A program made the position numbers and the translations under genes. A DNA stretch of 64,000 nt from IMG/VR virus record IMGVR_UViG_3300044712_000123. The stretch is one strand, 5' to 3'. Below, piece by piece: positions 6,929 to 31,942 of the stretch. The notes below the pieces were generated by a model. It made no database searches. It saw only the letters and a list, made by a program, of their open reading frames with translations, and had not been told where the DNA came from. Numbering within the stretch: the first letter of the stretch is position 1; every line of letters starts with the position of its first letter. The DNA comes from a virus. Lineage: Duplodnaviria; Heunggongvirae; Uroviricota; Caudoviricetes.

Positions 6929-7047
6929 CTTTTGGGCAACTACGAGGTTGACGATAAAAGCATAACTTGCTATACTACACACATGTTCTGAAAAATTCAG
7001 GACGAAAAACAAGTTGTGAAGTTTGGGCAAGTTAGTGAAAAAAGTTG

Positions 7048-8659: not shown

Positions 8660-8724
8660 AGGATAGTAACAGCAACATTTATACTCTGAACTTTTAATTC
8701 AACCAGTAAAAATTCTATCCTGTT
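8660..8724 (+). ncRNA. CAGCAA-module RNA carrying a Lys(TTT) anticodon stem-loop
   Basis: AGGATAG-TAACAGCAA ... TGAA ctTTTaa TTCA ... CTATCCT-GTT. Confidence 0.7.
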
Positions 8725-9617: not shown

Positions 9618-9678
9618 AGGATCGGTTCAGCAACTCAAAAGCTAACTTTGGATGTCTAGCGACAAAAACGATCCTGTT
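9618..9678 (+). ncRNA. CAGCAA-module RNA (short; possible Gln TTG loop)
   Basis: AGGATCG-GTTCAGCAA ... AAAAA-CGATCCT-GTT. Confidence 0.7.
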
Positions 9679-10034: not shown

Positions 10035-10154
10035 GCCGCTGTCGTCTAATTGGCTAGGACGCTTAAAAAGGTGACTCTGACAAGAGTACATACAGCAACA
10101 TAAAAATTCCATTCTAAGGAAGTTATGGAGGTTCGAATCCTTCCGGCGGCACCA
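10035..10154 (+). tRNA. tRNA-Arg(TCT) interrupted by a 44-nt CAGCAA-module insertion
   Basis: Removing 10063-10106 gives a 76-nt cloverleaf (CTTCC atTCTaa GGAAG, GCCGCTG/CGGCGGC-A-CCA). Confidence 0.75.
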
Positions 10155-10159
10155 GTTTT

Positions 10160-10282
10160 AGGATACATTCAGCAACTAATACTTACGTCAACTAGCGTGT
10201 TGAGAGTTCGAACCTCTCCTTCGTTCTTATGGACGATGTAGCTCAATTGGTAGAGCAGCCAGCAAGTAAAAAGTATCCTGTC
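10160..10282 (+). ncRNA. CAGCAA-module RNA carrying a circularly permuted tRNA (T-arm, looped acceptor, D-arm)
   Basis: AGGATAC..GAGAG ttcgaac CTCTC-CTTCGTT/GACGATG-TAGCTC aattggta GAGC..GTATCCT. Confidence 0.75.
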
Positions 10283-14342: not shown

Positions 14343-15419
14343 ATGTTCTTTTATGCAGGCACACACTGTGAGTTGTTAAACAAAGCCGACGAAGGCTTGT
14401 TTCTTGACAATGGCTGGATAAGACAAGATAACGTCTGGTTCAAAGGCTACAGCACAGAATGCGACATAAGTAAGAACGTTCAAGATATCATTGAAGGCTA
14501 TCAGCCACGAGGTATCTGGGCACTCATTCACAAGTCTGAAAATAGTTATACTGTACATCACAGTGAACTAAGAGGCTTTCCTCTTTTCAGAAACAAAGAC
14601 AACGAAACAACTAACATACCTAACTTGAATGGCTTTGAGTTAGAATATTGCCAAATAGACTGGTCAACCGACTTCACCGAACTTTCACTTGAGGAAGTTG
14701 TTGATAGAGTTAGATCAATACTAGTGGAAAACGTTGAAGGTGTTATCAAGTATAACACCATAGATAGAATGACTGTATTAGTCACGGGTGGATTAGATTC
14801 TACCTTAGCATGGGCAACGATTGATTCAATTAGTGATTATGATTTGGTAAAGTCTCCTACACAAAATCGTAGAGACTATACCTCACCACTGACTCAGTAC
14901 ATGAACACTAATCATTGGGCACATGCTATTGTGAACCTTTCAAACAAGGTCACATGGAATTTAACTGGGTTCAGTGCAGAAGCAATGACGGTCAGAAGAC
15001 CAGACATGTTTAACACGATTTGTAGATTCAATAACACTACGGTGTATGATTCTATATCGAGTAAAGATTACATGTATTATTTTTTGCATCGACCTAGTTG
15101 GAAGAAAATCTTTGAGGAACAAGATCACGTGGTCACAAACCTACGTGAAACATTACTCAAGCAAATTGATGTGGACTACTACATGTGGCACATTGATAAC
15201 AATTTTCACGTGAGTCCTTTCTATGACAAGCGCATCGCCGAAACGTGTGTACGATTGAAGATGGAAGACTTGATTGAAAATTGCAAGAACGGTACAGTCG
15301 AGCGATTGGTTTTGCAAAAGATCAAACCCCAGTACCTAGCTCTTGTAAGCGATTACAAGAATTACGGTAACGTGATGAAGAACTTTAGTACTCATTTTGA
15401 AATGGCTACTAAAGGTTGA
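14343..15419 (+). CDS. Asparagine-synthetase-like / PP-loop protein
   Basis: N-terminal WFKGY..RGFPL amidotransferase-like region; VLVTGGLDST; SPFYD. Confidence 0.6.
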   Translation: MFFYAGTHCELLNKADEGLFLDNGWIRQDNVWFKGYSTECDISKNVQDIIEGYQPRGIWALIHKSENSYTVHHSELRGFPLFRNKDNETTNIPNLNGFELEYCQIDWSTDFTELSLEEVVDRVRSILVENVEGVIKYNTIDRMTVLVTGGLDSTLAWATIDSISDYDLVKSPTQNRRDYTSPLTQYMNTNHWAHAIVNLSNKVTWNLTGFSAEAMTVRRPDMFNTICRFNNTTVYDSISSKDYMYYFLHRPSWKKIFEEQDHVVTNLRETLLKQIDVDYYMWHIDNNFHVSPFYDKRIAETCVRLKMEDLIENCKNGTVERLVLQKIKPQYLALVSDYKNYGNVMKNFSTHFEMATKG

Positions 15420-15486
15420 CAGTAAATATGATCGGTGATACAATCATAGCATGAGTTGAGAAATCAACAACGTTCTTTAAAAATTT
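15416..15486 (+). promoter_or_regulatory. sigma70 promoter followed by boxB-like hairpin and boxA-like sequence
   Basis: TTGACA-17-TACAAT; GTTGA gaaa TCAAC; CGTTCTTTAAAAATTT. Confidence 0.65.
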
Positions 15487-15692
15487 GTAGTGTAGTTTAG
15501 GCTGATGGACGGCAATCTGTTCGCAGTCTGATACTTGACTTCCTGAGACAGTAGCTTTGCCGAGCGAATCACAGGGAAGTTCGATATGGTGGAATTGGCA
15601 AACACAGGTGCTTTTGAAGGCGTCTGAGGTTAAACTCTTGTAGGTTCGAATCCTACTATCGATTTATCAAGCGTCAGCCTAAACTACATTAC
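15487..15692 (+). ncRNA. Long stem-bounded RNA containing a Leu-type tRNA body (15581-15662) with aberrant anticodon loop and no CCA
   Basis: GTAGTGTAGTTTAGGCTGATG / CGTCAGCCTAAACTACATTAC; GGTGGAATTGGCAAACAC; GTAGG ttcgaat CCTAC. Confidence 0.6.
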
Positions 15693-15700
15693 AAAGTACT

Positions 15701-15837
15701 CAAACTATTTCTAAGTGTCTTATCGTCTAGAGGCTTAGGACGCAAGGGCCCACACAGTGAAGTCATAGTAACTGTATGGTGGGAATCGCCAGTGAAACGA
15801 TGGTTCGAATCCATCTAAAATACTTAAAAATAGTTTG
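15701..15837 (+). ncRNA. Stem-bounded tRNA-like RNA with anticodon arm replaced by a long hairpin
   Basis: CAAACTATTT/AAATAGTTTG; D-arm CGTCT..AGGACG; GATGG ttcgaat CCATC. Confidence 0.55.
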
Positions 15838-15882
15838 ACAATAAATCGGTGCTATGATACAATCATAGCATGAGTTGAGAAA
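15835..15882 (+). promoter_or_regulatory. sigma70 promoter, repeat copy 2
   Basis: TTGACAATAAAT..TGATACAATCATAGCATGAGTTGAGAAA; last 28 nt identical to copies at 15436 and 16003. Confidence 0.65.
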
Positions 15883-15982
15883 TCTGTTTAAAAACAGTGT
15901 GACGTAGGTTGATGCTACTCTAGGGTAGACTGATACAGAGTAACAAGCTAGTGGAAATCACACATTAAACTAGCTAAACAGG

Positions 15983-16066
15983 TTGACAATAAATACATGG
16001 TGTGATACAATCATAGCATGAGTTGAGAAAGTCATCGAACTTCTTGACAACGATCTTTAAAAATTT
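15983..16066 (+). promoter_or_regulatory. sigma70 promoter, repeat copy 3, with hairpin and boxA-like sequence
   Basis: TTGACA-17-TACAAT; GTCA..TGAC; CGATCTTTAAAAATTT. Confidence 0.65.
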
Positions 16067-18806: not shown

Positions 18807-18878
18807 TGACAGATGGATGTGTAATCCACTTTTAGTGATTGCGTCATATGTGTGCATCAAGTATTTATAAATATTCAC

Positions 18879-19673
18879 ATGAGTAAAATTCTGATTACAA
18901 GTGGATGTAGTTTTAGCGTTAATAACCTTAGAATTCCGGCAACATGGTCTACACACCTCGGTAATACGTTGTATCAATTAGATTATCATGCACACCGTAA
19001 CTCTGCTAGATCAAGTCAGGGTAATGGCTTGATAAGCAGAAGTACGATGTATAATGTTATTAGCGCATTGGAAACATACAAGCCCGAAGATATCTTAGTG
19101 GGTGTCATGTGGTCAGGAGCAAGTCGCCATGATTATAGATGCACTGATAGTAAAGACCTGCAGTTTGTTCAAGCTAATATAAACAACGGTTGGATTAAGA
19201 ATCCAAATCAGTTTGTTAAAAATGCTCCTGACAATTGGGTCATGCTTACGGCAGCTTGGGCTGATGGTAGCTACGGTTCCGTAGTCAAAGAAGCTGAACT
19301 GTACTACAGACATTTTTACGATGAGATTGGTAGCTCAATTCAATCAATTGAGCATATACTGCGTTTGCAACTGTTTTTAGAATCAAAGAAAATTCCATAC
19401 TTCTTTACTAACTACAGCGATCAAAACATAGTAAGAGACTATCTAAAGGAAAATATCGAGATAAAATATTTGTACGATCAAATAGATTTTTCAAAGTATC
19501 TTCCAGTTAGTAGTGAATTTAGATGGTGTTACGATAACTCTAAGTTCACACATTTGTGGCCAGAGAATTGGAGAGATCAGATATCTCTTCATCCAAAACC
19601 AGAAATGCACAAAGAATTTGTTGACCAAGTTATAATGCCTTGGTTACAAGAAAAATACGCGGGGTTGGTATAG
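18879..19673 (+). CDS. Hypothetical protein, SGNH-like
   Basis: LITSGCSFS..SQGNGLI..GVMWSG..SLHP; TATAAATA at 18866; stop inside tRNA-Gly. Confidence 0.7.
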   Translation: MSKILITSGCSFSVNNLRIPATWSTHLGNTLYQLDYHAHRNSARSSQGNGLISRSTMYNVISALETYKPEDILVGVMWSGASRHDYRCTDSKDLQFVQANINNGWIKNPNQFVKNAPDNWVMLTAAWADGSYGSVVKEAELYYRHFYDEIGSSIQSIEHILRLQLFLESKKIPYFFTNYSDQNIVRDYLKENIEIKYLYDQIDFSKYLPVSSEFRWCYDNSKFTHLWPENWRDQISLHPKPEMHKEFVDQVIMPWLQEKYAGLV

Positions 19674-19732
19674 TGGCTGTGCTCTAGCCTTCCAAGCTAG
19701 TAAGACGAGTTCGATCCTCGTACCCCGCTCCA
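19659..19732 (+). tRNA. tRNA-Gly(TCC)
   Basis: CTAGC ctTCCaa GCTAG, CCA. Confidence 0.9.
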
Positions 19733-19737
19733 CTTTT

Positions 19738-19847
19738 AGGATGTTTACAGCAAACAATCGTTTAAGGTTCAACTCCTTATTTTGCCACCAAACGCTCGAA
19801 AGGGCATCGGCAGAGTCGCGCAATGGGCGCAATCTACACATCCTGTT
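19738..19847 (+). ncRNA. CAGCAA-module RNA carrying a permuted tRNA with internal ACCA
   Basis: AGGATGT-TTACAGCAA..TAAGG ttcaact CCTTA-TTTTGCC-ACCA..GGCAGAG-TC-GCGC aatgg GCGC..ACATCCT-GTT. Confidence 0.7.
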
Positions 19848-19880
19848 ATATTTTGGTCAACGACTTGAAAATAGTTGTTG

Positions 19881-19950
19881 ACAATAAATCAAAGAACTGA
19901 TACAATACATGTATTGACACTGAGAAATCGGTGATGTTCTTTAAAAATTT
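19881..19950 (+). promoter_or_regulatory. sigma70 promoter + boxB-like hairpin + boxA-like sequence
   Basis: TTGACA-17-TACAAT; CACTGA gaaa TCGGTG; TGTTCTTTAAAAATTT. Confidence 0.65.
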
Positions 19951-19963
19951 AAGCTAAGAATTT

Positions 19964-20085
19964 TCTTAGCATTGTTGAGTATACTAACTTACAGCACAGC
20001 CGAATCTGTGTGTAACTCCTAGTCGTAACTTATTGTGAGAAATAAGGGAGTGTATGTCTCACTAGTGTATTCAACAATGTTAAGA
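19964..20085 (+). ncRNA. Stem-bounded cassette
   Basis: TCTTAGCATTGTTGAGTATACT / AGTGTATTCAACAATGTTAAGA. Confidence 0.5.
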
Positions 20086-20098
20086 TTTTAAAAGATAT

Positions 20099-20963
20099 GG
20101 GGGCTTAGCCTCATTAGAATAAGCATAGTGATATGCCCAAAGCGGTCGTCTCCTACAGACCCGCGCTAGAAATAGTTCATCTAAGCAAGCCTGCTTACAC
20201 CCGTGAGGGTGCGATCACTGATAAGACCGGTGGTTGTAACTGTAAAGCAAGTGTGTTGGAAAGAATGTCTGTTTATGTTCCCGTGAGGGTAAGACAGGCG
20301 GACAGAGAGTAACAGGTGGTGCTGACCTCAACACAAAACCAACTTGTCAACAGGTATAAGAAAAGGTAGTGTATTGATTCGAGGGGTTGCACCCAAGAGT
20401 TCGTATGCAGTTTGAGTGGTTAGTGGATATGTATGGTAACAGGCATATACACCGATCGTGAAAGACGACTGAGTAGTTCGCAAGACAAAAGGTACGTGGC
20501 GTGTTGTATTTTGTAGTCCAAAAGATTATGAAGCAACTGAGACAGCACATCACAGTAGGTTGTTATAGATCATTGGTAGATCAATTCTCTGTTAAAGAAT
20601 AGGCAGCAGGTTCAATTCCCGCTAACAAATAAAAAAGCAAAGTCTGTCTCGGTTGTATGTGAAAAGCATCTAATACTGGAGCCGCAAGGTAATTCAGTCA
20701 GACGTAACTCGCAAGGTGAAATCTGTTTATGCAGGAAGTTTCGTAAGTTGTTAGCGCAACTGAATGGCTCGCAAGGTCAGCGGAGTAGAAAGCGTAGAAT
20801 AGCATACAATGTCAAGTCTAATGCCTGACTTAAAACGGCGATGTTGGTAACAGACTAGGATACTCAGCAATGAGGCTTAGTGGAAATCAGAAGAAAGCAG
20901 TCTCGCAAGGATTGTAATAATGTCTGAGGTGTTACTCGGTAAGGATGTATTCTCAGTCCTCCA
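20099..20963 (+). ncRNA. GOLLD-like giant structured RNA (about 865 nt)
   Basis: ORF-free; many GNRA hairpins; GGGGGCT/AGTCCTCC end pairing; ACTGAGACAG/CTGTCTCGGT long-range pairing; located in a tRNA cluster and carrying an internal tRNA. Confidence 0.65.
20559..20629 (+). tRNA. tRNA-Asn(GTT)-like domain embedded in the giant RNA; no CCA
   Basis: GATC attggta GATC; ATTCT ctGTTaa AGAAT; GCAGG ttcaatt CCCGC; TTGTTA/TAACAA. Confidence 0.7.
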
Positions 20964-22060: not shown

Positions 22061-22179
22061 AGGTTCATTTCAGCAATCAAAATAATCTTTCTGTAAAAAA
22101 GAGGGACTGGGTTCGAATCCCAGCAGTGAGTTGGTCTTCACTGTGGTGTAATGGTAGCACGAAAAAAGTTGAACCTGTT
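22061..22179 (+). ncRNA. CAGCAA-module RNA carrying a complete circularly permuted tRNA-Tyr(GTA)
   Basis: AGGTTCA-TTTCAGCAA..TCTTT ctGTAaa AAAGA..CTGGG ttcgaat CCCAG-CAGTGAG/TTCACTG-TG-GTGT aatggt AGCAC..TGAACCT-GTT. Confidence 0.8.
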
Positions 22180-23091: not shown

Positions 23092-23679
23092 ATGAAATCT
23101 CTTAATATAGAACTACCAGACTTTCACTGTGACCTAACTGAGCAAGACTTATTAGATATGCATGACATTATTCAAGTAGGGAAACTTGCTTGGAGTCCTT
23201 CGGAGAAAAAAGTAGTAGATTACTCCGATGTTCCGGTATTTAGATTATACACGACTTATGATCCAAACGTAACTAGTAATGTAAATCCTGCATTAAATCA
23301 TGCTAGATGGTTCCCCTTACAACCTGCGTTTTATCGAGTTTGTGCAGGAACCGGAAATACAAAACTCATTGATTTATTTGGACAACTAGTGAATGAAGCT
23401 ATCCGACTTTATGATAAGCCGTTTTCGACAGTAAGTTGTATACTATGTGATGAAACCATCAGTAAGCACATTCACTCAGTAGACCCTAGTAAGAATGTAG
23501 TTACTACTACTTTTTATTGGTGTTTGACTGAGAATACACTTGACGCAGATTTTTTTATCGAAGATGAAGTTTATCCTGTGTTTCGTCAGGGAATGTGGGA
23601 ATTCGACCCAGCAACACCACACGGCTTAATCAGTAAAGATAAAAATATGAGATTTTATGTGTTGATTGATAATCTATGA
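23092..23679 (+). CDS. Cupin/2OG-oxygenase-like protein
   Basis: SKHIHS..FDPATPHGL. Confidence 0.55.
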   Translation: MKSLNIELPDFHCDLTEQDLLDMHDIIQVGKLAWSPSEKKVVDYSDVPVFRLYTTYDPNVTSNVNPALNHARWFPLQPAFYRVCAGTGNTKLIDLFGQLVNEAIRLYDKPFSTVSCILCDETISKHIHSVDPSKNVVTTTFYWCLTENTLDADFFIEDEVYPVFRQGMWEFDPATPHGLISKDKNMRFYVLIDNL

Positions 23680-24362
23680 ACATTAATAAAGATAGGGATA
23701 TGATAATCATAGGCCATCCAAGAAGCGGTAGCTTTTGGTTGCAAAGTTGTATGCCTCACTTTAATTGTCGGGAACTTTTCAATACAGTTAACTTCGACAT
23801 TGTTGGTAAAAATGAAAAACAATTACTAATCAGTTCATATAAAAGTGTGCTACTTGATGAACAGCATGAAGATGAAGAAATTAGAAAACGCATTGAATTA
23901 TTGAGTACCATCAACGTTCCTAAGGTTACAAAAATACTTACATTTCAATTTCAGTACGCACATAGAACAAAATGGAATAGTACTATTTTTGATTGGGTCA
24001 ATTCACAAGATGCGGATGTAGTATGGATAAAAAGAAAAGATAAGTTAGCAAGTTTCAAGTCTTTACTAGTAGCTGACTCTTTGGGAAAATATATAGGTCC
24101 CATAGGTGCATCGGAATGCACAGTTGATATACAACGATTACCTTGGTTGATAGATAGTTTAAGTTACGATAAGGATACTTATATCAGAGAACAACTGAAC
24201 AAGGATATACATGATGTATGGTATGAAGAATTGCTAGACGATTCTTCCTTTAAAAACACATCATCAATGGTAGTTCAAAAATCAAGCGAAGTAACTATTA
24301 CTAACTGGCAAGAAGTAGTTAATAGTTTACCTTCAGAGGTAAAGCATGATATCGGACTTTGA
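23676..24362 (+). CDS. Sulfotransferase-like P-loop protein
   Basis: IIIGHPRSGSFWL; IKRKD..S; WYEEL. Confidence 0.6.
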   Translation: MNINKDRDMIIIGHPRSGSFWLQSCMPHFNCRELFNTVNFDIVGKNEKQLLISSYKSVLLDEQHEDEEIRKRIELLSTINVPKVTKILTFQFQYAHRTKWNSTIFDWVNSQDADVVWIKRKDKLASFKSLLVADSLGKYIGPIGASECTVDIQRLPWLIDSLSYDKDTYIREQLNKDIHDVWYEELLDDSSFKNTSSMVVQKSSEVTITNWQEVVNSLPSEVKHDIGL

Positions 24363-24948
24363 GATTCTGCATCAACCTGTTCCTGATTTTACTAGTCATA
24401 TCGCCTGTTTGGATCGACTAATCAGTGTAGGTAGCACAGCATATAATCCCGAGACTAACACGATTAATGGTAGTTTTATTAATGATGGTGTTGGATTATT
24501 CATCATACATTCTAGTGTGTTTTGTCAATACTTTACTATCACTAAATCACCCTACCCTATGTTCCCTACATTGAATAGGGGTATTGCAAATAATGTAAGC
24601 AGATATGTGTATGACGGGATAAAAGAGTTGTATCTGATGTGTAAGTCGATGGTAAAGATTGATTACAACACTGTTAACTTCAACTTAGCACGAACATCGG
24701 TATACAAACACACTCATAAGTTTGCATCACCAAACGATACTTCGATTGATACTCAAGTATTTCAGTTTAAGTTAACCAACTTAGGACCAAGAAACAGTAC
24801 GTTTAAACTTTATAGTTCTGAATATGTTGAATTACCGATGACTGATAATTGCACCTTTAGATTTAACGGTATGTTAGAACATGAAGTAGCTAGTGCAGAA
24901 GATCCTAATTACTATGGATACTTCGTATTTGAAAAGTGGCCAGAATGA
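24346..24948 (+). CDS. Cupin/2OG-oxygenase-like protein
   Basis: YKHTH..FNGMLEHEV. Confidence 0.5.
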   Translation: MISDFEILHQPVPDFTSHIACLDRLISVGSTAYNPETNTINGSFINDGVGLFIIHSSVFCQYFTITKSPYPMFPTLNRGIANNVSRYVYDGIKELYLMCKSMVKIDYNTVNFNLARTSVYKHTHKFASPNDTSIDTQVFQFKLTNLGPRNSTFKLYSSEYVELPMTDNCTFRFNGMLEHEVASAEDPNYYGYFVFEKWPE

Positions 24949-25508
24949 TTTGCTTTAGAGAAATTGAAATAGAAAACTACGAACAATGCAATACTGAACT
25001 AACGGAAATGTTTAATAGGCAATATGTGAATCCTACTGCCATCGAACGCTTTTGGAACTTTCCGAACGAAACAGATTTCTTTGCGATGTGTCCCGCGGTA
25101 ATCAATAGTCTCGGTAAGTTAGGGTTGACTGTTAATCACGTGTATATGATATCAATATCAAATAATCATCCCGAATCGATTCACATTGACTATAAAGCTA
25201 ATCCAGTTAGGCTACATTGGCCAATCTACAATGTAGGTTCTGCGTTGACTAAATGGTACGAGTATGACGGATCGTATGATGAAGCGGATCTAAAAAACAT
25301 TGATGGTAATGGACCTCTGTACGCAGAGTTTGATAAAAATAAATGTTCAGTAATCAGCGAACTTATTATGGTTAAACCTACAATGTTTAGAGTTGATATA
25401 CCACACAGTGCAGGTATAATATCTTCTATGCCTCAACCTAGAGTAGCTTTCAGCTTTAGTTTTAAAGAGCAAGATAGAACAGAGGTAATTTTAAATGAAG
25501 GCTTATAA
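24945..25508 (+). CDS. Cupin/2OG-oxygenase-like protein
   Basis: IHIDY..FRVDIPHSA..RVAFSF. Confidence 0.6.
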   Translation: MICFREIEIENYEQCNTELTEMFNRQYVNPTAIERFWNFPNETDFFAMCPAVINSLGKLGLTVNHVYMISISNNHPESIHIDYKANPVRLHWPIYNVGSALTKWYEYDGSYDEADLKNIDGNGPLYAEFDKNKCSVISELIMVKPTMFRVDIPHSAGIISSMPQPRVAFSFSFKEQDRTEVILNEGL

Positions 25509-26043
25509 AGTAGAACAGTTTACTAAAATGACCCCTGAGTTAGAGGAGTTCATGAAAATAACCAAAGATAGAGGTCTAGTCAATAACTCAAGTCTTGATA
25601 TGCTATATAGTTATCGCAACGAGAAGGACCATGCACTATTCACCTTGTGGTACAATGATATAATCGTAGGAACGTTCGGGGCGCATTCAATGGATTTTCT
25701 ACCCAACTCATATAGAATATGTGCAAGAATGTGCATATTAACAGACTTGACAGATTACCCCTCAGTGAGAACGTTAAATCAGATAAAGACAAACAAGCAT
25801 TTGACTGCATTATATGCTATTCCCAAATGCATTGAGTGGGTACGTAGTGTAAATGAATCAGGGGATATGTTCATCACTAGTCACCCTTCGGACGTTGGTA
25901 CTCAAAGACTGGTTCATAATATATATTGTCCAGCTATGGAGAAACTTTCAGTATTGAAAAATGAAGGGGAGTACTTTTACCGAGGTGCCGTCCAGACATT
26001 TTGGAAATTAAACCCTGAAAAATTTTATGAAACAATTCAGTGA
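25495..26043 (+). CDS. Hypothetical protein, possibly GNAT-like
   Basis: IIVGTFGAHS..YRICARMC; coupled ORF. Confidence 0.55.
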   Translation: MKAYKVEQFTKMTPELEEFMKITKDRGLVNNSSLDMLYSYRNEKDHALFTLWYNDIIVGTFGAHSMDFLPNSYRICARMCILTDLTDYPSVRTLNQIKTNKHLTALYAIPKCIEWVRSVNESGDMFITSHPSDVGTQRLVHNIYCPAMEKLSVLKNEGEYFYRGAVQTFWKLNPEKFYETIQ

Positions 26044-26608
26044 CACATTTTTCTTTCGCTTAGGCGCGATGAAGTTTTCAGAATCATTTGACGGGTTAAC
26101 TAAGCTAACTGACGTTTGCACATACGATGCAACAATGTATGCAACAAACGAACCCAAGTACTGCATGATTCGTAAACAAGAAACCACATTCAGACCTCAT
26201 TTAGTGAGGCACTTGAACCTATTAGATGATGAAATGCGAAACTATATTCAACGGATGTGGGATGCATCAAATACATTTGTGCAATCTATTGGAATCGAAC
26301 CGTATCAATGCTTCTTGGTAATTTCTAGTAATCGTTATAGTGTTCCGGATCACACGCACGGCGACCACATGGGAGATACTATTACAGTAGTGTCATCATT
26401 AGGTAACAGTGTTTCAGATACATATCTTTGCTTAGGTGACAATACTAGATTGAAATACCCTGAACCGAATGAAGGCAACTATGCAGTTTGCTTTGATGGC
26501 AACATTGTCCATAGTATGGATGCACACGATGACAATTACTATTTTCATTTTGTGTATGATTTAACTACTAGTGTAGATTTTCCAAAGAACATCTGGATTA
26601 AGTTATGA
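26027..26608 (+). CDS. Cupin/2OG-oxygenase-like protein
   Basis: PDHTHGD..FDGNIVHSM. Confidence 0.6.
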   Translation: MKQFSDTFFFRLGAMKFSESFDGLTKLTDVCTYDATMYATNEPKYCMIRKQETTFRPHLVRHLNLLDDEMRNYIQRMWDASNTFVQSIGIEPYQCFLVISSNRYSVPDHTHGDHMGDTITVVSSLGNSVSDTYLCLGDNTRLKYPEPNEGNYAVCFDGNIVHSMDAHDDNYYFHFVYDLTTSVDFPKNIWIKL

Positions 26609-27219
26609 ACAAAGTAGAAGAGGCAGTACTTGAGTGGATAGAACGTAACAATCTTTCATATGAAAAGACTGATTGGGGTTTTATTACATCTGCCTTCAAT
26701 ATCAAATGCATACCGAACAATCAATCGTTTCCTATATACAAAGAAAAGAATGATAGAATAGTTGCAGAGTGGGCACTAGCGCAACATATCGTTCGCCTTG
26801 ATGATTGGATCAACAAGAGACCAACTCTACGTATTGAGAAATTATCCATCAATGTCGAAACAACAGAAGATAAGATTCTAGTAACCGCTAAACGTGACGA
26901 TACATTGATTGCCGAGTCAGAATTATGGATTGAGGACACTTGCATATATTGGCACGACACACGTTATCATGGTTACCATGTTCCCGGTTGGCTATCTAAA
27001 ACACTACGAACTGTGTTAAGATTGAATTTAAATTTGCCTATTGAGACTATTACCAATTCAATCGATAGTTCGTATCATCGTATTGGATTTAGAACAGTAG
27101 AAAAATTTGATGTACGTGATTATGTGAGACGGTCTAAACTCCCTAGTAAGATTCCATTCACAAATCCAGAAAACATCATAATGTGGAGATTAGTTTATGA
27201 TAGTATCAGCACCGTATAG
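26605..27219 (+). CDS. Hypothetical protein
   Basis: 204 aa coupled ORF. Confidence 0.7.
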   Translation: MNKVEEAVLEWIERNNLSYEKTDWGFITSAFNIKCIPNNQSFPIYKEKNDRIVAEWALAQHIVRLDDWINKRPTLRIEKLSINVETTEDKILVTAKRDDTLIAESELWIEDTCIYWHDTRYHGYHVPGWLSKTLRTVLRLNLNLPIETITNSIDSSYHRIGFRTVEKFDVRDYVRRSKLPSKIPFTNPENIIMWRLVYDSISTV

Positions 27220-27730
27220 ATCAGGTGGCACCTCATTATGCACAATATTAGCATCTGAACATAACCTAAGGTTTGCCGGACAGATTGATAACAATGCAGT
27301 ACCCTTCACACGAATGGAAGACAAGAACTTCATTCACGAACATCAGAATCAACCAGATCATACTATCAACTCAATCACTAAGTTGTTGATTGACGATAGT
27401 AATGATATTATTCTAAACAACTCAAACCCTGCTCTATTCTCTAGAAGTGATTATTTCATCATGCGTAGTGATATGAGTCAGGTATATTCATCTATGTATT
27501 GGATGATGACTAAGTTGTATCCTAATATGGGTAAGCATCCAATTGAAATGATGTTCAAACGCATTACATTCTACAACGCATTGTTCCTGGATTACTTGAA
27601 AGAAACTAATACAGAGCCATTGATTCTGGAAGAACAACCATGGTATGTTCCTAAAGATAATCATATAGTACCTAAGGAGATACAGGACATGATTCCAACA
27701 TACACAGTATATTTGGAGGCATTTAAATGA
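27197..27730 (+). CDS. Sulfotransferase-like P-loop protein
   Basis: IVSAPYRSGGTSL. Confidence 0.5.
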   Translation: MIVSAPYRSGGTSLCTILASEHNLRFAGQIDNNAVPFTRMEDKNFIHEHQNQPDHTINSITKLLIDDSNDIILNNSNPALFSRSDYFIMRSDMSQVYSSMYWMMTKLYPNMGKHPIEMMFKRITFYNALFLDYLKETNTEPLILEEQPWYVPKDNHIVPKEIQDMIPTYTVYLEAFK

Positions 27731-28335
27731 AAAGAGTTTTGATAGTAGGAGCTGATAGTGGTATCGGTGAAGCATTGTTCAACAGAATCGAAGGAAGTAT
27801 AGGCACCTCACGCCGCTCAGATAGTAAACACATTCTATTGGATGTATTATCCCCTGAGACTTATCCAACTTTTGAAGAAAAGTTTGATGAGATATACTTC
27901 TGTACTGGGTTAGGTGGCAAGATGGGAACAACTGAGCAAGTTATTGAAGTCAATGCTACAAAAGCAATTGAATGCCTACATCATTTAGCATCCTACGTTG
28001 TCGAAGGTGGTTCTATAAGAGTTATGTCTAGTATCACTGCATCATTATCATTTGCGGTGAATACCCCAATGTCATCGATACCTACATCTTACCGAATGAG
28101 TAAAGTCGCATTGAATATGGGGGTAATTAAATTACACCACGCTTTTCCAGAGATTAATTGGCAGTTAGTTCATCCTGGATTAGTGAGAACAAAGATGACA
28201 GAAGATATATTAATAACTGACAGTAAGTACAAAATGATTTCTCCGGAGGAATCAGCACAAAGGATCCTTGCTACATCAGTAGACAAGCGATTAAGTTTTG
28301 TTAACGTAATCTCGGGACATGACATTCCTTGGTAA
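27727..28335 (+). CDS. Short-chain dehydrogenase/reductase
   Basis: VGADSGIG, YRMSK (YxxxK), HPGLVRTKM. Confidence 0.88.
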   Translation: MKRVLIVGADSGIGEALFNRIEGSIGTSRRSDSKHILLDVLSPETYPTFEEKFDEIYFCTGLGGKMGTTEQVIEVNATKAIECLHHLASYVVEGGSIRVMSSITASLSFAVNTPMSSIPTSYRMSKVALNMGVIKLHHAFPEINWQLVHPGLVRTKMTEDILITDSKYKMISPEESAQRILATSVDKRLSFVNVISGHDIPW

Positions 28336-28406: not shown

Positions 28407-29138
28407 ATGGATGATACGAAAATTTTCTGGCGCAGACATGAGCTACCTGTTGCAGAGTACTTAATGTCACATCAAGCTGGGTTGCGTGATGATTTCATGA
28501 GAGGTTTTGCAACCTTAGAGGAAGCAGCAAAAGCCCAAACTGAGGGTATTATGGCTAAAGAATGGCGCTTAAAGGATCGTATTAGACGCGGATTCTCAAA
28601 GGAAGATACAGAAAATTGTGTCACCACCGGTGATTCTGCAAATCTTGAGGGATGGAGAGCTATGCCCCTTCGTTACGAAAGACATGACGACATTAATATT
28701 AGTTATACAGCACCTGAGTCCTTTAAGGAAAGGTATCCAACTGCATATAAACTAATAACAGAATACGGGGATGACTGCCCAATCTCAAATTATACAGTTC
28801 TCGCTCCCAACACTGTATTGCATAGACATACTGGTGTTGAAAATCGCACAGGTGAATACATCCGTATCCACATCCCATTGATAATCCCTGAGGGTGATGT
28901 ATTCTTTGAAGCGAACAACGAAGAAATAGATTGGTCTGACATTTGGGGATTTCATAATCAGTTTGCACACTCTGCACACAACTATACAAACGAATGGCGT
29001 TTAGTATACCTAATAGACCTTCGCAGAACTTCTATCGGTCTGCCACCAGGAATGCCATATGATCCAAAATATGAATCAACAAACATGGCTCCGTTCGTAA
29101 GAAAAAATAAACCAAATCAGTTACCCAAAACTGTTTGA
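28407..29138 (+). CDS. Aspartyl/asparaginyl beta-hydroxylase-like oxygenase
   Basis: LHRHTG..RIHIPLIIP..FHNQFAHSAHN..RLVYLID. Confidence 0.85.
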   Translation: MDDTKIFWRRHELPVAEYLMSHQAGLRDDFMRGFATLEEAAKAQTEGIMAKEWRLKDRIRRGFSKEDTENCVTTGDSANLEGWRAMPLRYERHDDINISYTAPESFKERYPTAYKLITEYGDDCPISNYTVLAPNTVLHRHTGVENRTGEYIRIHIPLIIPEGDVFFEANNEEIDWSDIWGFHNQFAHSAHNYTNEWRLVYLIDLRRTSIGLPPGMPYDPKYESTNMAPFVRKNKPNQLPKTV

Positions 29139-29449: not shown

Positions 29450-29600
29450 AGGATCGGTACAGCAATAATTTACTTTATTGGAACTGATGGATCGCATGGT
29501 AGCTATTGGAGTCTACGGACGTTGAAGGTAGTTATTGAAATGCATCTATCGCAATAGGAGTGATGGCCCTATTCAAAAAGCAGTCAACAACGATCCTGTT
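29450..29600 (+). ncRNA. CAGCAA-module RNA with about 115-nt cargo
   Basis: AGGATCG-GTACAGCAA ... CGATCCT-GTT; inner ACTG/CAGT, GATGGAT/ATCTATC, AATAGG/CCTATT. Confidence 0.7.
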
Positions 29601-29662: not shown

Positions 29663-29719
29663 AGGATGCATTCAGCAACTTTAATCTTTTTCATAATAAG
29701 AGCAAAAGCGCATCCTGTT
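29663..29719 (+). ncRNA. CAGCAA-module RNA carrying a Met(CAT) anticodon stem-loop
   Basis: AGGATGC-ATTCAGCAA..TCTT-t ttCATaa t-AAGA..GCATCCT-GTT. Confidence 0.72.
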
Positions 29720-29744: not shown

Positions 29745-31169
29745 ATGCAATTCGCAGAAGCAATCAAAAACCAAGAAGTTCGTACTACTAATGGTATGAA
29801 GGCACGTAAGTCAAGCGCAAACGCTTGTGTAGACTTGTTCTACAACCTAGGTGCAAGCCGAGGTAAAAACGTTATCCCAGCATTCACTGCGGCTTATGTC
29901 GAGAACAGTGATCTGGCACTGCGTATTGCACAGTGGGCACGTGATGCCCGCGGTGGTTCCGGTGAACGCCAAGTGTTCCGAGATATTCTTGTTCACTTGG
30001 AAAAGACTAACCCAGAAGACGCTATGCGTTTGATGGCGAAGATCCCAGAAATCGGTCGTTATGACGACTTGCTAGTGTTTAAGACTCAGCCTGTGAAGGC
30101 TAAGGCATACACTATGCTTGGCGATGCACTTCGTGCCCGTAACGGTCTCGCGGCTAAGTGGACTCCTCGTAAGGGTGAAGTCGCACGTGAAATCCGCGAA
30201 TTCTTCGGAATGACTCCTAAGCAATACCGTAAGAGCCTTGTTGCACTTACTAACGTTGTGGAAACACAAATGTGTGCTAAGGATTGGGATAACATCAACT
30301 TCTCGCATGTTCCTTCAGTGGCACATGCACGTTACAAGAAGGCGTTTGGCCGTAATGGCACAACTTACGCTGAATACGTAACTAAGTTGGTTAAGGGCGA
30401 AGCAGGTGTCAAAATCAACGCTGGTGCAGTTTTCCCTTACGATGTGTTGAAGGGTGCTATCAACCGATACAGCCGTTCAGCTATGTCTAAGACTGAGTTG
30501 GATGCATTGCAAGCCCAATGGGACGCATTGCCTAACTACGTCGGTGACGCTAACGTGTTGCCTATGGTTGACTCGTCAGGTTCGATGACTTGCGCGGCAG
30601 GTGGTTACAACTCTAAGTCAGGCTTGTCTTGCTTGGATGTTGCACTGTCTTTGGGCTTGTACTTCGCTGACAAGAACAAGGGTAAGTTCAAGGATACGTT
30701 CTTGACTTTCTCTAACACACCAAAGTTGGTTAACTTGAAGGGTAACATCAATCAAAAGATTGACCAAATGAACACAGGCGAAGTTGCTAACACCAACTTG
30801 AATGCGGCGTTCAACTTGATCCTCAAGACAGCGTTGGACAACAATGTTCCTCAAGCAGAAATGCCAGAAACATTGGTGATCTTCTCTGACATGCAGTTCG
30901 ACCAAGGCGTTAAGCACGATGACAGCGCAATCGAAATGATTGCACGTAAGTATGAAGCCGCAGGCTACGCGATCCCTAAGGTCGTGTTCTGGAACTTGAA
31001 TGCCGCTTATGGCAACACCCCTGTCAAGTTCGATAAGAGTGGTACCGCTCTTGTCTCTGGTTTCAGCCCAGCTGTTGCAACTTCTGTATTGTCAGGAGAC
31101 TTGGAAGACTTCACACCAGAAGCTATCATGTTGAAGACAGTTATGAAGGATCGTTACGACTTGTCGTAA
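29745..31169 (+). CDS. DUF2828-family TROVE-like/vWA protein (Ro60-like architecture)
   Basis: N-terminal TTNG..VDLF..RDARGGSGERQVF..GRYDDL..AKWTPR helical region; vWA MIDAS VDSSGSM..T..SDMQFD..VFWNL..VSGFS. Confidence 0.8.
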   Translation: MQFAEAIKNQEVRTTNGMKARKSSANACVDLFYNLGASRGKNVIPAFTAAYVENSDLALRIAQWARDARGGSGERQVFRDILVHLEKTNPEDAMRLMAKIPEIGRYDDLLVFKTQPVKAKAYTMLGDALRARNGLAAKWTPRKGEVAREIREFFGMTPKQYRKSLVALTNVVETQMCAKDWDNINFSHVPSVAHARYKKAFGRNGTTYAEYVTKLVKGEAGVKINAGAVFPYDVLKGAINRYSRSAMSKTELDALQAQWDALPNYVGDANVLPMVDSSGSMTCAAGGYNSKSGLSCLDVALSLGLYFADKNKGKFKDTFLTFSNTPKLVNLKGNINQKIDQMNTGEVANTNLNAAFNLILKTALDNNVPQAEMPETLVIFSDMQFDQGVKHDDSAIEMIARKYEAAGYAIPKVVFWNLNAAYGNTPVKFDKSGTALVSGFSPAVATSVLSGDLEDFTPEAIMLKTVMKDRYDLS

Positions 31170-31372: not shown

Positions 31373-31942
31373 CTATTTGAAGCGAGGGCCCCAAGCGTGT
31401 CCAACAAGACTAAAGCGTGTGCCCCTTGTAATCTCGGTTACTGAATGAATGTAATGACTAGGAAAGAATATTCCTGTTCCTTGTTTTCTATTGCAGTTAT
31501 AAGAACCGATCATCAAGTCGCCGCCTTCATATTCTTGTTCATCTGACAGTTGTACAATCAGGTTCATTTTTCTTTCAATTCCCCGTTCAGTGTTGATTAG
31601 GATGTCACTGTGAGGTCCGAACACATCACCTTCGATATATGATTTGATTTCATATGGTTCAAGGAAATCTATCGATGGATTTTCAATATCACAAAACTGT
31701 TCCCATGCTGAATCTAAAATGTCGTATATACGATGATTGTGTTGAAACACCAAGCAGGTGTAAAAAGAGGCAAAACAATCTTCTGACTTGCTACCTCGAC
31801 GGTGCAATCCTGATAGGTCCTTGTCTAACGCAAACTCACGTAATTCTTCTGCTACTTCTTTGGTTACTAAATTGGGTATCTCGGTTACCAAACTTTTGAA
31901 GCTCGCAATTGCTAGTGGTTTGTTTTGAACGGGTAAGAACAT
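31373..31942 (-). CDS. 2OG-Fe(II) oxygenase, PKHD/P4Hc type
   Basis: FGPHSD..RKMNLIVQLSD..YEGGDL..FFPSHYIHSVT..RFSLVG. Confidence 0.92.
   Translation of the reverse strand: MFLPVQNKPLAIASFKSLVTEIPNLVTKEVAEELREFALDKDLSGLHRRGSKSEDCFASFYTCLVFQHNHRIYDILDSAWEQFCDIENPSIDFLEPYEIKSYIEGDVFGPHSDILINTERGIERKMNLIVQLSDEQEYEGGDLMIGSYNCNRKQGTGIFFPSHYIHSVTEITRGTRFSLVGHAWGPRFK

Follow-up and report, generated by a model that had tools for sequence, protein, structure and literature searches.

The DNA between positions 19738 and 19847 of the window (the whole stretch of 64,000 nt analysed here, which seems to come from a giant lake phage) constitutes a gene for a small non-coding RNA, presumably transcribed from the plus strand. 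According to our best explanation, to which we assign a probability of roughly 0.7, this RNA is a YrlA-like tRNA mimic carried on the CAGCAA handle of what would be a phage Ro60-like particle, and it belongs to a family of phage RNAs that resemble Y RNAs. The layout of a tRNA mimic is already known from YrlA; what is special here is the presence, on this handle, of a 7-bp acceptor stem, an ACCA and an 18-nt spacer hairpin.

Anatomy and genomic setting of the element

All parts of the element lie on the plus strand, and the span from AGGATGT to ACATCCT measures 107 nt. The handle is closed by a stem whose 5' strand, AGGATGT (AGGAUGU in the RNA; 19738-19744), was read from the sequence and recovered by RNAfold. 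It is followed by the handle motif TTTACAGCAA (as RNA UUUACAGCAA; 19745-19753), which contains CAGCAA and was located in the sequence and in the family alignments. Inside the handle there is a T arm, TAAGG-TTCAACT-CCTTA (19763-19779; sequence, RNAfold and covariance model R1), with a 5-bp stem and a loop, UUCAACU, that fits the TTCRANY consensus. Directly behind it come the 3' strand of an acceptor stem, TTTTGCC (UUUUGCC; 19780-19786; sequence, RNAfold and composite search), and an internal discriminator A plus CCA (ACCA; 19787-19790; sequence). The acceptor arm is closed by an 18-nt spacer (19791-19808; sequence and RNAfold) with a hairpin, GCTC-GAAA-GGGC, of four pairs, one of them G.U, at 19794-19805. 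The 5' strand of the acceptor stem, GGCAGAG (19809-19815; sequence and RNAfold), forms seven pairs with TTTTGCC, two of them G.U, and the predicted RNase P site lies at its edge, at 19808/19809. Then follow T8 and C9 (U8, C9) and the D arm GCGC-AATGG-GCGC (19816-19830, the D arm proper at 19818-19830; sequence and RNAfold), whose loop of 5 nt is unusually short. The last part (19831-19847; sequence and alignments) comprises the junction AATCTAC, the 3' strand of the handle, ACATCCT (19838-19844), and GTT, which gives the family end CUGU. The A-run that usually precedes the 3' strand in the handle family is degenerate in this copy (AAUCUAC). Judging from the sequence, U8, A14, G18-G19, T54-A58 and the A15/U48 pair are all placed as in the elbow of a tRNA.

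The minimum-energy structure calculated by RNAfold (-29.9 kcal/mol) reproduced all of these helices. The energy is modestly unusual (z = -2.05), with 9 of 200 shuffled sequences folding as well. A strict composite search required, in this order, a 5-bp T arm with a TTCRA loop, a 7-nt strand and, after an interval of up to 30 nt, a second 7-nt strand that pairs with the first throughout; 2 nt further on, a 4-bp D arm with GG in the loop had to follow. In the window this layout occurred only at 19763 and 22107, and it was absent from all of 200 shuffled windows; therefore, it is not a chance product.

The T arm, TTTTGCC, ACCA, GGCAGAG and D arm had been pointed out in the initial annotation, and both the sequence and RNAfold bear them out. 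Its view of them as permuted tRNA parts within a module stem also stands, with AGGATGT and ACATCCT pairing in RNAfold and the module recurring in the window. The spacer hairpin, given there as CGCTC gaaa GGGC, exists in the shorter form, the additional C being unpaired. The lack of an anticodon arm was likewise confirmed: only a weak 4-bp hairpin occupies the place where sister copies have an anticodon-like hairpin, and neither ARAGORN nor the Rfam tRNA model (RF00005) called the element, which has no complete cloverleaf in the standard order. The suggestion that it arose by fusion of two adjacent tRNA genes found no donor, as no tRNA of the window resembles either half; the nearest relatives of the element are other handle RNAs. 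On the whole, the interpretation given in the initial annotation is supported in part; the YrlA character of the layout and the probable role of the module in docking a Ro60-like protein had escaped it. No match to the element was found in 50,697 phage records.

The window holds 49 tRNA genes, located from 7.9 to 32.5 kb (ARAGORN, Rfam). One of them, tRNA-Gly(UCC) (19659-19732, plus strand; ARAGORN, and 52 bits with Rfam tRNA), ends 5 nt before the element, and the two are probably on the same transcript. Another, at 15579-15665, was called by ARAGORN with a four-base anticodon (ttga) and an enlarged loop, and reached only 35.8 bits with Rfam tRNA. Around it, at 15409-16030, a region without long ORFs contains a 55-nt unit in three copies (80-100% alike, spaced 148-419 nt); the unit consists of a consensus-like promoter plus the leader CATAGCATGAGTTGAGAAA, and more distant copies lie at 7041 and 13259.

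Just upstream of tRNA-Gly there is an ORF (18852-19673) with weak, sub-threshold Pfam matches to DUF6071 and to the Gabija anti-defence protein Gad1. Many homologues of this ORF occur in lake metagenomes, in varied contexts; those in the protein collection stand mostly in other contexts, and the present one is kept only in L233, the closest relative available. A peptide-pattern search of viral contigs yielded no relative of this ORF.

Downstream, the handle is directly followed by the U-rich stretch GUUAUAUUUUGG, and 34 nt beyond the element lies a near-consensus promoter (19878-19906; TTGACA, 17 nt, TACAAT). After this promoter come a GAAA hairpin, a boxA-like run, TGTTCTTTAAAA, and a leader of about 590 nt that extends up to a GOLLD RNA (20496-20959; Rfam match of 215.7 bits), in which tRNA-Asn(GUU) is embedded (20558-20631). 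Considering that about 50 bases behind the promoter, covering the hairpin and the boxA-like run, are nearly identical in L233 and that the remaining leader is partly alike, the GOLLD transcript probably starts near 19912.

The handle family and its presumed Ro60-like partner

The handle is defined by a closing stem AGGAUnn/nnAUCCU with covarying variable pairs, followed by CAGCAA, and by a 3' end CUGU. The pattern AGGAT-N4-9-CAGCAA was found six times in the window, against 0.17 matches expected by chance, and in all six cases there is a closing strand that fits the two variable bases of that same copy. Together with a copy whose stem is a variant, the window contains seven handle RNAs, the element included. 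The sister copies, all on the plus strand, differ in their cargo. The one at 8660-8721 carries a hairpin like an anticodon arm and the one at 9618-9675 a short cargo (both from the motif search and R1). At 10160-10279 (Rfam, R1) there is a T arm with a sealed acceptor and a D arm, and this copy gave a sub-threshold YrlA match. The variant-stem copy (AGGUUCA/UGAACCU; 22061-22176; R1 and composite search) has an anticodon-like hairpin, a T arm, a sealed 7-bp acceptor and a D arm. The two remaining copies are near a Ro60-like gene: one with a large cargo lies upstream of it (29450-29597; motif search and R1), and the other, at 29663-29716, is located between a consensus-like promoter and the gene and gave a sub-threshold match to Dicty_Class_I_RNA.

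Beside the copy at 10160-10279, at about 10036-10155, we observed a tRNA-shaped gene with acceptor, D arm, T arm and CCA that ARAGORN did not call. At its anticodon region it has an insertion of about 60 nt, in which ACAGCAAC is present together with an A-run, so that it resembles an inside-out handle.

From IMG/VR phage contigs we collected at least 160 distinct handle modules. Among the modules listed, UUUAGGAU on the 5' side, CAGCAA a few bases past the stem and AUCCUGU on the 3' side are invariant, and an A-run before the 3' strand is usual. The cargos of these listed modules range from about 20 to 230 nt and include anticodon-arm look-alikes, T arms alone, combinations of T arm, acceptor arm and D arm, and whole permuted tRNAs.

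The covariance model R1 was built from 17 sister copies, with the element left out. When RNAalifold was applied to the sister copies, the handle, T arm and D arm were recovered, and 9 of 16 pairs showed compensatory changes. R1 detected the element at 49.5 bits (E 7e-8) and aligned its T arm to that of the model. The score is no higher than those of handle-only copies and the D arm was misplaced, which is why we regard the element as a divergent member of the family.

The Ro60-like gene (29745-31169, plus strand) lies 10 kb from the element. Its product matches Pfam DUF2828, not TROVE, together with DUF7788/vWA, and PHROG 850, annotated as "RNA-binding protein"; a sequence search of the PDB gave no match. 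A model of the protein was obtained with AlphaFold2 from 80 diverse homologues (pLDDT 92.6). When it was compared with the PDB by Foldseek, the top 13 matches were all Ro60 structures, aligned over the whole length (TM 0.65/0.60), including the Ro60 of Thermus phage phiLo. The protein is thus predicted, from this model, to fold like Ro60. Handle RNAs were present in 69 of 80 phage loci around DUF2828/vWA homologues (177 copies in 1.07 Mb) and in none of 174 unrelated control loci (1.37 Mb). Most likely, the handle would be the docking site for this Ro60-like ring protein of the phage.

The neighbours of the Ro60-like gene are an Asp/Asn beta-hydroxylase-like gene (28407-29138) on one side and, on the other side and the opposite strand, a 2OG-Fe(II) oxygenase gene (31373-31942). 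Farther upstream, nine consecutive and mostly overlapping ORFs of 177-228 aa occupy the plus strand at 23092-28335. Eight of them have no Pfam match and the last is short-chain-dehydrogenase-like; the one pair that was compared had no sequence similarity or detectable paralogy.

Likeness to YrlA and to Class I RNAs

YrlA is a tRNA-mimicking Y RNA of bacteria and phages that is handled by tRNA enzymes and has Ro60/Rsr as its partner (Chen et al. 2014, PMC4201824). The element shares with YrlA (RF02553) the paired ends that enclose a variable region, a T arm, a closed acceptor stem-loop and a D arm (PMC4201824). It is also phage-carried, and its paired ends correspond to what in YrlA is the protein-binding stem. 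YrlA is encoded beside the gene of the Ro60 (TROVE) protein that binds it; the gene of the predicted Ro60-fold protein lies 10 kb from the element. The two differ in the motif, which is GNCGAA/CGAA in YrlA, whereas the element has CAGCAA beside the stem and no CGAA motif. They differ as well in the partner, the candidate here being a DUF2828 and not a Pfam TROVE protein, and in that the handle genes are spread through a tRNA array. In the region 19600-20500, RF02553 did not match the element at E <= 10. Against a gathering score of 69, the same model matched the sister copy at 10178-10280 with 34.2 bits (E 4.9e-6) and copies in other phages with 31-34 bits.

A further point of comparison is given by Yrl1, Yrl2 and Ro60 of Thermus phage phiLo, where a Ro60-fold protein is also encoded by a phage and the small RNAs lie just upstream of its gene (PMC12135203). 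The predicted structure of the 29745-31169 protein matches the phiLo Ro60 structures 9KOP and 9L5Y, with 15-16% identity in the structural alignment. In contrast to the handle RNAs, the phiLo RNAs have a CGAA motif, and the part of the published account considered here mentions no tRNA-like domain in them (PMC12135203).

The handle itself resembles the ends of the Class I RNAs of dictyostelid social amoebae, which have a short covarying terminal stem, the motif CCUUACAGCAA after its 5' strand, a CUGU 3' end and a variable interior of about 60 nt (Kjellin et al. 2021, PMC7919456). In those RNAs the motif is 11 nt long, with U3, C6, C9, A10 and A11 invariant, and the terminal stem has 6 bp (PMC7919456). 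The UUACAGCAA of the element corresponds to the last 9 of these 11 nt, and both motifs end in ACAGCAA. It is possible to read the same features along the element, AGGAUGU and UUUACAGCAA ... ACAUCCUGU, with a stem that covaries across copies and with ends taken from the sequence. The sister handle copies share with Class I RNAs the AG on the 5' side, the CUGU on the 3' side, a basic size of 50-62 nt and the variable interior. The Class I model (RF01414) matched the copy at 29664-29717 (26.6 bits, E 0.006) and handle RNAs in five other phage contigs (17-31.4 bits, E down to 7e-6 per contig), all of these matches being below the gathering score of 41.5; it did not match the element at 19738-19847.

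The settings of the two groups are different. Class I RNAs have 42-65 nt, belong to Dictyostelia and stand behind the DUSE promoter element, whereas the element has 107 nt and lies in a phage-like contig, in a tRNA operon with a sigma-70-like setting. According to the published description, Class I RNAs occur in Dictyostelia alone (PMC7919456). Direct binding to a Dictyostelium Class I RNA has been demonstrated for a single protein, Rnp1A, which is an RRM protein and not Ro60-like (PMC7919456); DDB_G0281243, an uncharacterised protein, was pulled down with Class I RNA. The handle family was not found in Rfam or in the literature searched, and the same is true of its pairing with Class I RNAs or with the protein partner.

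The encoded ACCA, alternative readings and proposed role

The ACCA of the element is encoded, is rare in the family and is of unproven use. Among the matches listed there are 22 cargos composed of a T arm, an acceptor arm and a D arm, and in 18 of them an acceptor stem of 3-9 bp is sealed by a loop of 3-6 nt; a free acceptor end is therefore no requirement of the family as a whole. The other four listed (the element, L038, L128 and L298) have spacers of 16-22 nt with a small hairpin of their own. An NCCA after a 7-bp stem was seen in only two of the 22 listed, the element and L038, the latter with a 7-bp stem, ACCA and a 16-nt spacer. L128 has C-ACA in that position and L298 has UCAA.

A related RNA was found in a module present in three lake contigs (L260/L465, L487 and L489), which shares with the element the D arm and a block, UUUUGCCACCAAA...AUC(A)GGCAG. 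The 13-mer UUUUGCCACCAAA is identical in the element, L260, L487 and L489. At roughly 80% overall identity, 13 consecutive identical bases are only weakly significant (we estimate about 5%), and from the sequence it is possible that the acceptor hairpin is under selection. Compared with this L260 type, the handle and D stems of the element differ by compensatory changes, the L260 type having U-A for a C-G pair in the D stem; a 13-nt hairpin is inserted in the loop, the T arm is inserted upstream and one stem is deleted. In the L260 type the ACCA is located in a closed 10-nt loop beside a 6-bp stem, and the T arm is elsewhere and not stacked on it. This handle RNA (L260:9600-9704, also in L487 and L489) has an acceptor-like hairpin with the ACCA loop, a D arm and a T hairpin enclosed by a GUAGU/ACUAC stem, and its position is immediately upstream of the promoter belonging to the next handle RNA and the Ro60-like gene. 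Its rearranged cargo suggests an exchange of tRNA parts among handle RNAs.

Bacterial RNase P usually recognises its substrates by a stack of 12 bp, 7 from the acceptor and 5 from the T stem, together with RCCA and a T loop that fits the consensus. At the level of sequence, the element has all of these (7 + 5 bp, UUCAACU and ACCA), as well as a single-stranded AUC before G+1. The initial annotation had proposed that RNase P and 3' trimming could excise the spacer. In its strongest form, this proposal holds that the main fate of the RNA is a cut at 19808/19809 followed by exonuclease trimming to the ACCA, leaving a two-piece tRNA-like molecule with a free CCA that is clamped by the handle and possibly CCA-extended or even charged. 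The site was placed by tRNA rules and by the precedent of Mycobacterium smegmatis YrlA, the one tested YrlA with a 7-bp acceptor, which RNase P cuts in vitro and in vivo and which gains CCA (PMC4201824). Both RNAs have the 7-bp acceptor; the CCA is partly added in M. smegmatis and encoded in the element. Nicking of the element is plausible by analogy, because that YrlA is processed in this way. The two products are predicted to stay paired, with a cofold energy of -28.7 kcal/mol against -13.9 kcal/mol for the separate pieces. Taking these points into account, namely the substrate features, the M. smegmatis cut and the predicted pairing, the proposed mechanism is a reasonable one with a precedent. 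It is also in its favour that L038 has the same design and that the L260 type keeps the ACCA. As the main fate, however, we consider it rather unlikely, the sealed acceptor arms of most listed cargos being at odds with a need for a free end. The other two long-spacer copies do not have a CCA, the L260-type hairpin with its short stem and closed loop would be a poor substrate for RNase P, and a trimming exonuclease would need to get past the spacer hairpin. As the element has no anticodon arm, most synthetases are unlikely to charge it.

A second alternative is that this copy is decaying or was recently rearranged and lacks a separate function; it would be a remnant of tRNA parts being exchanged between handle RNAs, and its ACCA a relic. 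The comparison with L233 is relevant here. This relative, whose upstream ORF is 70% identical, has the tRNA-Gly(UCC) and shares the promoter and leader that follow downstream; no handle module was found between the tRNA-Gly(UCC) and the GOLLD promoter (L233:1300-1770), the site being occupied instead by a plain 11-bp hairpin with a 15-nt loop. Searches with DNA patterns of the acceptor hairpin returned only chance matches in viral contigs, and in metagenome contigs they returned the three L260-type copies, none with the inserted hairpin. Since the module is missing from the L233 site and these searches brought up no further copy carrying the inserted hairpin, the element would be young, mobile or dispensable. 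The degenerate A-run, the short D loop, the missing variable hairpin, an R1 score no better than that of handle-only copies, and the insertions and the deletion relative to the L260 type all point the same way, and the copy looks atypical or possibly decaying. Against a loss of function, however, all helices are intact and free of mismatches (the 7-bp handle, the T arm, the 7-bp acceptor, the spacer hairpin and the D arm), as are CAGCAA and CUGU; the elbow positions U8, A14, G18-G19 and A15/U48 are in place, and the stem changes relative to the L260 type are compensatory. We regard this second explanation as improbable.

It could also be thought that the element is chiefly a 3'-end structure or terminator that shields the tRNA operon from the strong promoter 34 nt downstream, its tRNA-like parts being incidental. 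It is indeed the last unit before that promoter, a U-rich stretch follows its handle, and a plain hairpin takes the same position in L233. We find this quite improbable, given that its closing stem is AU-rich and long-range (the strands being 93 nt apart), unlike an intrinsic terminator, and that other handle copies are found inside runs of tRNAs or between a promoter and the gene that follows. It would also leave unexplained the conserved CAGCAA, the cargo and the link to the Ro60-like gene. An intrinsic terminator as such was rejected, as the terminator scan did not call the element.

Circularly permuted tRNA genes, with the 3' half upstream of the 5' half and a short linker between the acceptor ends, reportedly occur in the red alga Cyanidioschyzon merolae, where they are said to encode complete tRNAs with anticodon arms, made through a circular intermediate. 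The element has in common with them the 3'-half-first order, with an encoded CCA at the junction, but that it is such a gene, giving a working tRNA by the same route, is extremely improbable and was rejected because it has no anticodon stem-loop at all; its ends form the conserved CAGCAA handle and not a bulge-helix-bulge splice motif, non-tRNA cargos also occur on this handle among the modules listed, and ARAGORN and Rfam tRNA are silent.

Returning to the reading that we prefer, a YrlA-like tRNA mimic on a Ro60-type handle, the following sequence of events can be proposed. An RNA of about 110 nt would be made as the last unit of the tRNA transcript, 5 nt past tRNA-Gly(UCC), and would probably be released by the nucleases that trim tRNAs. 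Its ends would pair as the handle, with the 7-bp AGGAUGU/ACAUCCU stem, UUUACAGCAA and the CUGU end, and would most likely be docked on the Ro60-like protein. The cargo held out by the handle would copy the top half of a tRNA, with the T arm on the 7-bp acceptor stem and a D arm able to form the elbow, and with the acceptor arm closed by ACCA and the 18-nt hairpin spacer instead of a tetraloop. By default the RNA would probably remain sealed and act at the Ro60-like particle as a tRNA mimic, either recruiting factors that bind tRNAs or diverting them. Some of the molecules may be nicked by RNase P at 19808/19809, in the manner of M. smegmatis YrlA, and the handle and the acceptor stem would then keep the two pieces together.

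Tentatively, and as a long shot, the Ro60-like particle might display a panel of tRNA parts. An ACCA freed by RNase P on a tRNA top half would serve as decoy or sponge for factors that act on acceptor ends (defence toxins that modify or cut CCA, the CCA-adding enzyme or EF-Tu), and the sister RNAs would do likewise for anticodon-directed nucleases.

Y RNAs that mimic tRNA are known, and the present family offers a natural series on one handle that bears on the purpose of the mimicry. The series extends from sealed acceptor arms and acceptor arms with an encoded ACCA to anticodon arms on their own and entire tRNAs in permuted order; every type is linked to a Ro60-fold protein for which sequence methods give no more than the label DUF2828. 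The likeness of the handle to the Dictyostelium Class I RNAs points, in turn, to a candidate protein partner for an orphan RNA class. Within the series, it is the element and L038 that RNase P is most likely to open, and these two are therefore best suited to show whether the function of Y RNAs depends on a free CCA end.
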